Part shown: in pieces, positions 887 through 8,929 of the stretch
How the letters are laid out: the number at the start of each line of letters is the position of its first letter
How positions within the stretch are numbered: position 1 is the stretch's first letter
NCBI GenBank assembly: GCA_013265495.1
Contig: MU058039.1
Coordinates: forward strand, 560,591 to 624,590
Direction of reading: 5' to 3'
Source of the DNA: Vicugna vicugna
Taxonomy: Eukaryota
DNA length: 64,000 bases
The notes under the pieces: generated by a model
The model's database searches: none
Told to the model about the DNA's origin: nothing
Seen by the model: only the letters and a program-made list of their open reading frames with translations
Program-made: the position numbers and the translations under genes

Positions 887-1158
887 TAAAATTTCTGCTC
901 TTTGCTTCAAGATGTGTCTTTCCTCCCTCCGGTTTGGTGATCCTTATAGGTGCTGACAAAGGTTTGAGTGTCTTTTCAGCAGGGGCCGCAGGTTCACCAG
1001 CCCTTGCAATATCTAGAGAAAAGGGAAATTGCTTGTCTCTGTGTGACAAGGTCACTTTCTCATTTAGCCGCTGCTCCACCTGAGTAAGGAGGTACTGGAT
1101 ATCATTAGCTTGAATTCCCAGCAGCCGGTCCAGAGAGGCTTCTCCAATAAAGTCCTGC
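887..1158 (-). pseudogene. WDR87-like exon 4 homologue (QDFIGEASLDRLLGIQ...), 272 nt, open
   Basis: Acceptor tttgtag|G, donor A|GTATGT. Same length and phases as WDR87 32932-33203. Confidence 0.85.
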
Positions 1159-1625
1159 CTACAAAAGTCAAGGGAAAAGAAGGATAATACTGAGCCAGCA
1201 ATAAAACAAAATTAGAAGAGGAGGAGGAGGGGAAAGTACAGGACGAGGAGGTTCAAAAACAATGGAAGAAGCAGGGATAAGGTAGCCAACTAGGACAGAG
1301 TACTTAGAAGTAAAGGATGGATAAAGAATAAATAATCTAAAATAGCACGGAATAGAGTAGTCAGGGTGACCCATGATGCTTCTTCATTTAGGAGATTTGG
1401 GGACTTGAGTCTTGAGGAATCTTAAGGAAGTGAGAAAATGATGGAAGGGCAGGCTAGTCAACGGACAGAAGAGGGATAGGCACTTGGGTGAAAAACAAAT
1501 AGAATACAAAGAACATAGGCAGATGAAAAGAACAGAAAAGGGGTGGTGGAGGAGAAGCAGCAGTCAGATTTTGGAGGTTAGGAGCTAGAAGGAACAGAAG
1601 CGAAGAAGGCTGCCACCCAACTTGC

Positions 1626-4518
1626 TGCATTTCCTGGAAAGTTTCTTGTCTCTTCAGCAGGCCTACCAGCATACTCTTAGTTTGGATGCCTGTGACTCTC
1701 ATCATAAGGTATAAGGCCTTAGCCCGCACATTTTCATCACTGTCCATCAATCCCATAGCCAGTGGAACAGCAAAGAGATGGCTCATGAGGCCCAGCCTCT
1801 CTAGCCCCTCCCAGGCTATCTCACGGACCTGTGGATTGGAATGAGTTGTATCTTCTAGGAGGCGACTGGCAGCCTCAGAGTGCAACCTTGAAGATACTTC
1901 ATAGAAGGCAAAAATTTTTGCCAGAACACTAATATATGTCTTGTATTGCTCTATAGAACAGCAAACTGTGAGGTTGAGGATGGCCTCGATTAAAATATTA
2001 ATAAGTCCTTCATCAAATTTTCTTCCCGTACAATTTTGGTTGATCATGTTCATGAGACCATCAAAGAAAGTTTGTTTCTGCTGCTTGGATTTATAACCCT
2101 GTTTACTCTCTGAGATTTTCTCTTTTACTGGAGTCATAGGTGACTGTGCCTGGCGTCTGCTGAGTTCAGTCATGTCCCAGTCCTTATCTTGGTAGGATGG
2201 GGGCAGATCATAGCGTAGGAAGATTGGGGTGCCCTCAGGCCAAAGGCGGGCACGGATCACTGAGTTGGGGATGTAGCCATCAGGAGGAAAGGGCCATTGC
2301 CGCCCTCGACCAAAGAAGCGCCGTAAAATATGGTAGGGTTTCAATCCATTCCAGCCAGCCAGCCGCAATCAAGCAGGAACCCTGTGTAGAGGACGATCAT
2401 GCTTGGGATTAAGAGTAGAAAAATTAATATCCTTATCCTCCAAAAAATGCAATTTTGATCCCTCTTGAATCACAGAGGACTTATGTCGCTCTTCCTCTAC
2501 AACATGGGGCACAGTGTTGTCAAAGGCAATGGCCTGTTTGTTGACAAGGGCTTCTAGCCCCTGTAATTCCTGCAGCCCTTGACCACAGTAGACAAATCTG
2601 GGTACAAATACGCTTTCAGATGAAAAGAAGAAGCTAGGCAAGAAGGGTTTAGGGCCTTCTAGTATTTCATCTGCATTGTTTACAATAGCTAGGTGAATCA
2701 GCTGAGCTGGAGGGAGCAATTTTAAGCAGGATACCAGGTAAAGACTCAGGTTGAAAGTCAAAAGCAGGTCACCCCGATTATTGGCAAAGCAGACTAGGCC
2801 AAAATGTAATGCTGAGTCCAACTCAGTTATGAGTTTACCATGGAAGTCCCAGAACCGGACTGAACCATCAATGTCCCCTGTGACAAAAAGTTTCAGGGAA
2901 AGGCAGACATCAAATGAAGTGATGGCACACTGGTGCAGACATTTTGTCTCGTTAGACAGAGCTTTGCTCTGATTCTGAAGATGTCAGAAAATTTTCGTAG
3001 TGCCAGAGACGCCAACAGTGGTTCTCAGTGATGGCACCCACAGAACCTGGTAAGAGTATCACGTGTTTTAGGAGGCAACTACAGAGAATTTTGGCAATTA
3101 CAGAGAATTTTGCTGACGGTCTGCAGGATTACCTTGTTCTCCTGAAGCACAGCTTCTGTCATGTGTACAATATTATCCATGCCGTAGGAACACAGCAAAG
3201 AGTACTTCTGGGGACCTTCCAGGGTAGACAATGCCAGTACTGCCCCAGAGTGAATAGTCTTCTCTGTTCGGGCACAGCTATAGTGGGAGAGGATTCTCAC
3301 AATGCCACTCTCATGCTCACAGAACATCAACCCTACCGGGCTCTTACCCAAATGGGACTTCCCATAAGCCAGGCACCTTACTCTATCCCCAGGGTTTACT
3401 GAAGTGCACACAAGATACATGGCTGTGCAAGGGGAGCGTGTTGCATCAAACATCAGCACCTCTGAACTGTCTGTTGTCACAAAGAGCTCCTCTCTGTCTG
3501 AATCATAGGCCCAAGCCACAGCCTTATCCATGATAAGCAGAGGCCAGGTGATAACCAGGAGATCTCCTGTTACTGGTGACAAGAAGCGCAACAAACCATC
3601 CTTAGTGACACACAGGATCCGAATCCAATTATGGCCACAGCAGACCCGCTGCACCTTCAGGGGAGCAGAACCACAGATATTGAAGAGGCTATAAAAGTAG
3701 GGCAGGTGGTACAATGAGAAAGTGTAGGTAGTCTGGCAGAAAAAAGAGGTGTTATCAATGAACTGCAGTTTCTGCAGATCCTCATCAATATCCAGCTGCC
3801 GCAGCAAGTTCCCAAAGGCAAGGTTCCATTCTTTCACTACAACTTCACTGCCTGCTGTTAGTAAGGTGTGGGTCTCTGGCCGGCTTTGGATACATATCAC
3901 TGATGAGGAGTGGGCCTGGAAGCTGTGGAGGAAGTTACCTTGGTCTAGACCCCAAGCATAGATTTCTCCATCCCTGTTTCCAGCATAGAAATATCCCTGA
4001 GAGACACAAGTGAAGGAGCAGGTGATGGAGGAACCACTGGTGATGGGAGTAAATTTCTTTACCTCTTCTAGCTGGCCCTGACCCTGGTGGGTAAAGAATA
4101 TCACCTTATTCTCACAAAGAGCCAGGAGGGAGCCTTGGGGGCCATGCAGGGAAAAGCCCTGCATAAGCTTACCTCCAGCCATTGGCATAGTTTGTGCCAT
4201 TTGGAGGCCCCTGCCATTTGGCAAGATAAACCAGGTAACCACAGCCCCCAAGGTGCCAGACAGCAGCATCTCAGCTTCTGAGTCGTAGTAGAGGCAGCTG
4301 ATGGAGAAACGACAGAGTACTCTACTGAGAGATGTGAATTCTCGACGGTGATCTCCAAAGAGCCACAGGTGCATGTCACCACAGTAAGCAATTAATATAT
4401 GGTAGGAACCTGTGTGGACCATTGCTTGGATGGGTGGCACATGATCCAACAGATGAAACTTTATCTTCTCTATCATTCCTTTCATTTCTGTATCTTTTTT
4501 CTGTATCCAAAGTACTGC
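1626..4518 (-). pseudogene. WDR87-like large WD40 exon homologue, disrupted
   Basis: ORF pieces 3079..4485, 2369..2821 and 1454..2368 are collinear with WDR87 33679-36560. Length 2893 nt minus a net 20 frameshifting nt restores phase 2. Confidence 0.88.
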
Positions 4519-7235: not shown

Positions 7236-7313
7236 CTTTATATCCTTCAGGATATTTTTTATGAGGACTTTCAAGTCCTTCCACTCTGGAATAAGTCTGG
7301 GTGAAGGCGACAT
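7236..7313 (-). pseudogene. WDR87-like first coding exon homologue (MSPSPRLIPEWKDLKVLIKNILKDIK)
   Basis: Manual translation, 78 nt, open. Acceptor ttccacag| at 7359, weak donor AAG|GTGATG. In-frame upstream ATG at 7343. Confidence 0.85.
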
Positions 7314-8929
7314 CCTTGTGATACTCCAGCACTTAATAGACATCTTCGATTACAGAACCTGTGGAAGGCAAAAGTGACTTAATCACAACATCTGATGTTA
7401 GACTGGAAAGTAAGGGAATTGGGAGAGGGAAGAGTAACAGGGAAAGTGAGAGAAGGAGAGAAGCAAAAGTATTCCTTTAGAAACAGGAGAAACTCTTATT
7501 TCAAAAGATAGGGGTCAGAATGAACTAATGATACTTGCAACAACATGGATGAATCTCAATACATTATAATGAGTAGAAGCCAAATGCCAAAGAGCATCTA
7601 TTTGATTCCATTTACCACATGGAATTCCAGAAAAGAGTAATTTAACCCCTAGGGACAGAGAACAGATCAGTTGTTAACTGGGACTAAGAGTTTGGGAGAT
7701 TGCCTAGGCAGGAGTAAAAGGAAACATTTTGAGTGATGAAAACGTTCTATATCTTGACTTTGGTAGTTGTTGCATGGGCATATTAAAAATGGGTACACTT
7801 TAGTACATGTAAATTATACCTAAATAAATATGGTGTTTAAAAGAGGACAGGAGTGAAGTGGGAGTCTTATGAAGTCTAAAACAGGAAAAAAATGCAGCAA
7901 AAGTAAGCTGCTAGGTGAGCTTCGGTGAGTCAGTTGTAGTGTAGCTATTTAAATAATACAGGAGCCTGGCATTCCGGACCTCCCGTGACTCTCTTCTTTG
8001 GGATGCTCATTTTTGTAGACATAATTATATTTATTCTCTTCACTACTGAAGCCTTCATATATGTGAAAGTAACTCACCTGTTCATCAAAGATTTACTCAG
8101 TGTTCGTTATATGCCAGGCTCTGTGCTGAGAGCTGGTGATAAAGCACTGAACAAGAATGATTATCTGCCTTCATGGAGTTTACTATCCAATATGGAAGGC
8201 AGAAAATGAACAGTTAAAATAGATGTCCAGTTCTGGCAAGATGCCAGACTAAAATAACCTGAAAGCCTCCCACTACAAACTCCTAGAAATTCTGAGTAAA
8301 ATAACATGTGGCTGAATTCCAGGAGCCAGAAATGAAGATGGCAGGGGATGGGGGTGCAGGGGGAAGATACAGCAGTAAGTGCAAACTGCTTCTGTGATGG
8401 TCCTGAAGAGGTGTAGTTATCAGAGCCCCAAACTGATCATAATGGCTAGGAGCTAGGGTAGTACTGCCCTGGCTAAGAGAAGAGAAGGGACTTGGGCCCA
8501 TAAGAGGTAGGGAGCCAGAACTGAGACTCCTCCATTACCTTGGAAAGAGCTACTTCCGTACATAGAGCTGGCTCATGACCAGCTTCCTGAAAGCTTACAC
8601 AACTTTAAACATTTTTCCAGGCATGAGTCGGGACCCTACACATCTCCAAATTCAGGGGATACCTGAACGGGTATCATCAAGCTCTCCAAATGATTCTCTG
8701 ACACATACCTCACAAGGAAGAGAAGAAAAAGGGGAGAAGAAATACGATACAGCATACCAACAATTCTAAAGAGATGATTTTAAATCTACACCTGAGAGGG
8801 TAATGAGCTGGGGTGGTGGTGGGGGTGTCACAAAAATCTTCTTCACAATCTCTTAGCAGGCTCTGCATAGGTTATCTGATATCTATTGTTCTCAGATGAA
8901 ATTCCCAGAACATTGAAAGCCACATTTAA

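Follow-up and report, generated by a model that had tools for sequence, protein, structure and literature searches.

A broken tandem duplicate of WDR87 in the vicugna, probably the camelid orthologue of a second placental WDR87 gene

Is the damaged copy of WDR87 that lies beside the intact gene in the vicugna a local duplicate of recent date, or the remains of an older gene that other mammals still carry? The locus is found in a stretch of 64,000 nucleotides (nt) of Vicugna vicugna DNA (contig MU058039.1, positions 560,591–624,590, of assembly GCA_013265495.1), here called the window, in which the copy occupies positions 887–7358. Based on its gene structure, its place among related proteins, and the changes that it has accumulated, the copy is probably a broken tandem duplicate of WDR87 and the camelid orthologue of WDR87B, a gene for which many other lineages are predicted to have an intact version and which is likely a sperm-tail scaffold there.

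Structure, age and orthologues of the copy

In a self-comparison of the window, 887–7358 matches 32.9–38.1 kb, both on the minus strand, and the copy thus stands in tandem beside WDR87 (Table 1). The original prediction had described four exons that mirror WDR87 exons 1–4 in size (78/75, 168/171, 2893/2882, and 272/272 nt for copy and WDR87, respectively) and in phase, and this description holds. The 78 nt of exon 1 are counted from the second ATG (7313–7236); an in-frame ATG at 7343, ten codons upstream, agrees with the N termini of the rhino (P0002) and siamang (P0016) proteins and is the likely start of a coding exon of 108 nt. Identity between copy and WDR87 is 69% for big-exon DNA (1974 of 2853 columns) and 55% for protein (1102 codons), in line with an earlier estimate that about half of the residues had diverged. 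Membership of the WDR87 family is seen in this homology with four exons in phase and in the orthologues, which align to WDR87 over 2,700+ residues.

All four introns of the copy, rather than the two first noticed, could be aligned to those of WDR87 above 60 shuffles each (z = 6.4, 8.9, 4.4, and 19.2). The duplication therefore took place at the DNA level, as had been proposed. A retrocopy (processed pseudogene) was ruled out, all four introns being present and alignable. In this assembly, the copy keeps its introns and has a disabled reading frame, as an unprocessed pseudogene does. For the 1 kb upstream of copy exon 1, no alignment to the WDR87 counterpart was seen above shuffles (z = 1.7). 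The fifth coding exon, which is large in the orthologues, has no visible counterpart for the copy within the window; it would lie past the left edge, so that the lesion count given below applies to no more than roughly one third of the gene.

Related proteins were collected with two queries, the copy's open N-terminal frame (462 amino acids (aa)) and pig B, where A denotes the WDR87 clade and B the clade that holds the copy (WDR87B). The first query found 82 proteins of 810–2310 aa plus 10 of 254–809 aa. The second found 99 proteins of 1697–5401 aa, and its 80 new matches comprised 43 B and 37 A, with 30 of the 43 B proteins at least 2,600 aa long. A tree of 83 big-exon sequences, from which fragment P0043 was left out because of its low coverage, contained clade A (29 sequences, support 0.963) and clade B (51 sequences, support 1.0), each of which includes Afrotheria and Boreoeutheria. 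N-terminal trees were built with FastTree and with fast IQ-TREE using the Shimodaira–Hasegawa-like approximate likelihood ratio test; these joined A and B with support of 1.0 and 99.9, respectively, and placed platypus, two bilby, and one unnamed sequence outside. Within artiodactyl B, the copy pairs with Camelus B (support 1.0), at its species-tree position. These tree positions point to a duplication on the placental stem, later than the divergence of marsupials but ahead of the placental radiation. A recent camelid duplication was ruled out by the tree. There was no sign of recent gene conversion between A and B, C-terminal A–B identity being alike within and across species (61–64%).

As had been expected, intact-looking orthologues occur in other mammals, in the form of predicted B models in many placentals. 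Full-length models (2,600–3,600 aa) are present for pig, ruminants, horse, carnivores, bats, armadillo, rodents, monkeys, gibbons, and orangutans (3149 aa in orangutans, 2933–3007 in gibbons, 3002 in gelada, 3273 in deer, 2969 in a cattle hybrid, and 2661 in goat), and B sequences were also found in sloth and armadillo. Uncorrected single-exon open reading frames (ORFs) of type B independently show the big exon to be open. Scaffold length is the same for the A and the B model in each of five species (sifaka, manatee, hippo, tenrec, and hedgehog), which is consistent with A–B linkage.

The gene is already in databases as "WDR87-like", the human pseudogene symbol WDR87BP probably being its counterpart, and B proteins are often named plain WDR87, as in pig, horse, dog, lynx, lion, black flying fox, and tree shrew (proteins of that kind are P0011, P0023, P0028, P0035, P0151, P0187, P0372–P0375, P0390, P0391, and P0397). 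No paper on B, its age, or its losses turned up among the matches listed in searches of open-access full text; supplementary gene-loss tables may include the locus. The description of the gene as under-described is therefore partly upheld: it fits the literature covered and not the databases, which hold automatic WDR87-like models and the human symbol.

Two WDR87-like proteins of the bilby (P0189 and P0340) are 70% identical to each other and pair in the tree, by which they would represent an independent marsupial duplication. Among rodents, a mouse partial protein (P0362, cluster of P0069) with an open 938-aa big exon is of A type, and full-length murid and cricetid B models exist (P0413 and P0426); a rodent test of B looks possible.

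Lesions and probable loss of constraint in camelids

For the copy against WDR87, nonsynonymous divergence (dN) was 0.335 and synonymous divergence (dS) 0.875, giving dN/dS = 0.38 (bootstrap confidence interval 0.32–0.45), which supports long purifying selection. The ratio is not near 1 and orthologues were found, in agreement with the long functional history put forward in the original prediction.

In this assembly, three of the four exons are open, and the big exon carries three lesions within ~750 bp, as first described: a tandem duplication, a 2-nt loss, and a stop codon (Table 1, lesions 1–3). The stop codon likely arose by a CpG transition. The exon 3 donor also appears to have been altered. 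In 20 of 20 B-type single-exon ORFs of 925–960 aa, the frame stops directly after the last exon residue, which points to an orthologous donor GT followed by a stop; the GC donor of the copy is therefore a likely fourth lesion, and the "few lesions" of the original prediction are present but probably one short. Their proposed clustering beyond chance was not supported, since three big-exon lesions inside 748 bp have P = 0.17 within the big exon and P = 0.12 across all four exons. The predicted product of a spliced message from the copy is 571 aa; such a product would be cut inside the propeller block, and the transcript would probably be removed by nonsense-mediated decay.

Table 1. Coordinates in the window of the copy, its lesions, WDR87, and neighbouring features
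Feature	Position	Strand	Description
Copy coding exon 1	7236..7358	-	Acceptor 7358, ATG 7343 (108 coding nt, likely start), second ATG 7313, GT donor; open
Copy coding exon 2	5098-4931	-	168 nt, open, AG/GT; 91.5% to dromedary model P0084
Copy coding exon 3 (big exon)	4518-1626	-	2893 nt; broken; predicted tandem WD40 propellers, low-confidence linker, and helical-repeat block
Copy coding exon 4	1158-887	-	272 nt, open, AG/GT
Copy intron 4	560..886	-	73% over 265 columns to WDR87 intron 4, almost reaching expected exon 5 acceptor
Lesion 1	3074..3112	-	19-nt tandem duplication, 2.1 copies, 95% match, one mismatch between units; frameshift, stop 3079-3081
Lesion 2	2954..2960	-	Net 2-nt loss versus Camelus protein (P0001) in short CT-rich run; exact site ambiguous
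Lesion 3	2369..2371	-	TGA where Camelus has Arg
Lesion 4 (likely)	1624..1625	-	Exon 3 donor GC in weak context (CA/GCAAGT); WDR87 has GT
Intact WDR87	27013..38087	-	Five coding exons, 2975 aa, one terminal stop; big exon 99.4% to Camelus bactrianus WDR87 (P0441)
WDR87 exon 1	38087-38013	-	75 nt
WDR87 exon 2	37114-36944	-	171 nt
WDR87 exon 3	36560-33679	-	2882 nt
WDR87 exon 4	33203-32932	-	272 nt
L1-like repeat, 3' end	1..550	+	A-rich tail; antisense to copy, near expected end of intron 4; 71% to second copy at 13809-14323
CpG island	17501..18500	.	~10 kb upstream of copy exon 1, between two genes

The window WDR87 is ~99% and the copy ~93% identical to the Camelus proteins, values that point to a camelid outside Camelus and probably to a South American one. 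Within the big exon, 63 of 931 residues separate the copy from its Camelus counterpart, against 6 of 960 for WDR87 (Fisher p = 6e-14), a ratio of ~11; the B/A rate ratio in six other species pairs is 0.9–1.5. Conservation was scored across 46 independent sequences, by which 350 of 935 sites count as conserved (0.37, the uniform expectation; 4 sites ambiguous). Private changes fell at such sites in 93 of 910 cases (0.10) in the intact lineages, which are 12 laurasiatherian lineages. For the camelid stem the count was 6 of 43 (p = 0.0007 versus uniform). On the window branch, 11 of 34 private amino-acid changes did so (0.32; Fisher p = 0.0006 versus intact lineages), and on the Camelus branch 6 of 25. 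B was thus constrained on the camelid stem, unconstrained on the window branch, and intermediate in Camelus, and by these protein-level tests purifying selection has been lost on the window branch.

Assuming one indel per 10–20 substitutions and a wholly neutral branch, 4.0–6.1 lesions are expected in the big exon on the window branch, and 3–4 are seen. The small number of lesions thus fits a branch that is short in substitution terms, rather than a recent loss. On the Camelus branch, neutrality predicts 3.0–4.5 lesions, whereas no lesion is present in the Bactrian exon. Even so, the dromedary gene appears as two separate B models of 152 and 853 aa, and the Bactrian model is without exon 1 and most of the last exon. 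A relatively recent loss, as originally proposed, therefore fits neither the 11 of 34 changes at conserved sites nor the lesion count, which matches a branch neutral throughout. The Camelini–Lamini split has been placed at 16.3 million years ago (range 9.4–25.3) (PMC6899786). Constraint would have ended near this split, early on the window branch and less clearly in Camelus, and not recently.

Among the neighbouring features, the repeat at the left edge, which its sequence features mark as L1-like, lies within a few tens of bases of the expected acceptor of copy exon 5 and may separate the branch point from that acceptor. The CpG island upstream of the copy is a candidate promoter for it; a weak match of the warthog B model (P0005) at 17727–17927 falls within the island, and comparison of this island with that at 44–45.5 kb found no similarity. 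The last exon of WDR87 holds a 126-bp coding tandem repeat (30208–30593; 3.1 copies, 94% match). Across it, the window WDR87 is 80 aa longer than Bactrian WDR87, so that repeat number varies among camelids.

Proposed function and possible losses in other lineages

The fold labels of exon 3 were taken from a structure model of the rhino orthologue (1161 aa, 39-sequence alignment), which is of low confidence overall (mean predicted local distance difference test score 57, predicted template modeling score 0.42). In this model, a strand-rich block at ~68–682, predicted better than the rest, is followed by a low-confidence linker and by helices at ~890–1050. Its best structural matches are tandem-propeller proteins at 10–16% identity, which carry fold information only. 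Pfam WD40/propeller matches lie mostly below the curated cut-offs, with PF00400 passing in orangutan B. The strand-rich block and the tandem-propeller matches together describe an N-terminal WD40 propeller block, and full-length A and B share a charged Glu/Lys-rich middle and a conserved C-terminal block, 61–64% identical.

WDR87 is described as testis-specific (PMC5172248) and is reported to bind CFAP47 and to help to assemble the sperm midpiece (PMC11462348 and PMC11506864, citing Liao et al. 2022). By descent and architecture, we lean towards B being a sperm-tail scaffold of the kind of WDR87, partly redundant with A. Where B is intact, its tandem WD40 propellers and helical-repeat block would dock on flagellar assembly partners such as CFAP47, with the long Glu/Lys-rich tail serving as a spacer. 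B would be dispensable if its role overlaps with that of WDR87, and repeated loss would follow.

Such repeated loss may be seen in the African apes. B models are truncated in bonobo (665 aa), gorilla (607 aa), and chimpanzee (364–736 aa), and are full-length in orangutans, gibbons, and Old World monkeys. A cluster of unnamed, hominid-like ORFs (741 aa) that occurs on up to 197 contigs and is 96.6–96.9% identical to orangutan B falls in clade B. Nine of its members were mapped, and in eight of them the frame is interrupted at orangutan residue 834, the position at which chimpanzee model P0091 shifts frame too; chimpanzee B has another frame break at residue 437, and the gorilla and bonobo models end before residue 834. 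We infer that the unnamed ORFs are human and that the frameshift at residue 834 is shared with chimpanzee. The models concerned are P0089, P0091–P0094, P0101, P0333, and P0346–P0354. When the constraint test was applied to ape branches, the counts (5 of 13, 2 of 11, and 4 of 15 versus 2 of 15, 2 of 11, and 5 of 38) comprised too few changes to read.

The copy likely matches the human pseudogene WDR87BP, which would lie beside human WDR87 (19q13.13). The symbol WDR87BP appears, at low expression, in a human RNA-seq table of stem-cell data (PMC12715488). No site is shared between the lesions of apes and those of camelids, and the losses would therefore be independent; African apes, by this evidence, would have lost B on their own, leaving WDR87BP in human.

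Three named whale proteins (P0188, P0428, and P0432) among the matches of the pig B search are all A, and neither this search nor the N-terminal ones yielded a whale B, an absence that is weak evidence and gives a weak hint of a third loss in whales. Five leaf-nosed or mormoopid bats show A only, where absence is likewise weak evidence. Short B models of marmoset (P0190, 518 aa, internal gap), Damaraland mole-rat (P0339, 341 aa), and sloth (P0338, 303 aa) could reflect either additional losses or incomplete models.

A wider picture, which we offer tentatively, is that WDR87B may be a ~3,000-residue protein of the sperm flagellum that dates from the placental stem, was kept under selection in most orders, and was lost in camelids, in African apes including the human line, and possibly in whales. 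Its loss in the human lineage may then have affected the sperm tail or midpiece, and would have escaped screens that take human genes as their reference, since in human the copy is dead. If true, these lineages would be natural knockouts for a probable sperm-tail protein, and the gene would be a candidate for studies of gene loss in the human lineage. A camelid pseudogene alone would be ordinary; the interest lies in a large second WDR87 apparently kept by most placentals and lost in African apes. With B often labelled plain WDR87 in pig, horse, dog, and others, findings from livestock and model animals that are filed under WDR87 may concern either gene.

Alternative readings and known systems

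Several points weigh against the copy being the long-decayed orthologue of an intact sperm-tail gene. In camelids, the Bactrian big exon is fully open, which under full neutrality has P = 0.01–0.05, and the 6 of 25 conserved-site changes in Camelus are marginally above intact lineages (p = 0.04) and indistinguishable from uniform (p = 0.12). For the window branch, the estimated share of neutral changes, 0.81, has a wide interval (0.26–1.48). The lesions are known from one assembly; the 14 runs that contain the stretch (9 listed as likely DNA, kind unknown for 5) hold 0.95–0.97 of its words, a share that cannot settle three short lesion sites. The exact truncated N-terminal ORF is absent from the protein collection, which is uninformative since gene callers may start elsewhere. 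Outside camelids, the intactness of orthologues is that of predicted models, of which hippo and manatee B are flagged as low quality, and support for the B clade is moderate in the short N-terminal trees (0.77 and 86.7). The link to WDR87BP rests on symbol, tree, and presumed synteny. As to function, the structure model is of low confidence, and the literature found holds no expression or functional data for B.

The open Camelus exon leaves room for a loss of B confined to the South American camelid branch, with a functional, fast-evolving gene in Camelus whose split or shortened models are artefacts of assembly or annotation. Such an account, which we consider possible but unlikely, would explain why the big exon (948 aa) is open in both P0001, of Camelus type, and the Bactrian P0086, and why no lesion is seen there although neutrality makes this improbable. 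Two reproductive-tract RNA runs, with 0.38–0.39 of the words, could likewise reflect a transcribed Camelus-like copy, although runs at 0.06–0.39 were counted as no evidence of expression. However, Camelus B has 25 private changes against 6 differences in all for WDR87. Among the 25 are three Arg>Trp replacements, two of which hit conserved sites, and a His>Asp replacement at another conserved site. The dromedary model is, in addition, split. The original prediction, that B was functional through most of the lineage and was broken recently by a few clustered hits, draws on the open exons 1, 2, and 4, on a count of only 3–4 lesions in 3.4 kb, and on the lower bound of 0.26 for the neutral share. 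It now appears improbable: changes on the window branch fall at conserved sites as if unconstrained (0.32 versus 0.10, p = 0.0006), the lesion count agrees with the neutral expectation for the whole branch, the spacing of the lesions is unexceptional (P = 0.12–0.17), and the units of the 19-nt duplication already differ.

That this animal has an intact gene and the lesions were introduced by the assembly is very improbable. One run, flagged as a possible source, contains 0.97 rather than 1.0 of the words, and the absence of the truncated ORF from the protein collection would fit, but real decay is indicated by 34 private missense changes where the adjacent WDR87 exon has almost none, and the searches gave no intact protein above 93% identity. 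Consensus errors do not typically produce a tandem duplication whose units differ, a TGA in place of Arg, or a GC donor. We give equally little credence to a useful truncated protein of 571 aa or a functional non-coding transcript; the first ~560 codons are open, and WDR87BP is a lowly expressed transcript in the human stem-cell table cited above (PMC12715488), yet later junctions follow a long way downstream of the stop, which interrupts the predicted propeller block, and changes at conserved sites occur in the open part as well. A broken orthologue of WDR87B, free of constraint since near the Camelini–Lamini split, thus remains the preferred reading.

Compared with known genes, the copy resembles WDR87 in exon layout, phases, intron remnants, and WD40 block, and its intact orthologues add the Glu/Lys-rich middle and the C-terminal block. 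It differs in belonging to a clade separate since the placental stem, ~55% identical in the N-terminal third and ~40% overall, and in being broken here, whereas WDR87 is intact. To WDR87BP it is linked by a name that implies a second, dead WDR87 and by African-ape B models that are truncated and group with the copy; the sites of the ape and camelid lesions differ. The "WD repeat-containing protein 87-like" models of many placentals (RefSeq, UniRef) are orthologues of the copy, although they are without a separate name and several B proteins are labelled WDR87. The primate unitary pseudogenes of Zhang et al. 2010 (PMC2864566), in whose main text there is no WDR entry, are like the copy in having orthologues intact elsewhere and one lineage disabled; the copy differs from them in that a paralogue adjoins it.

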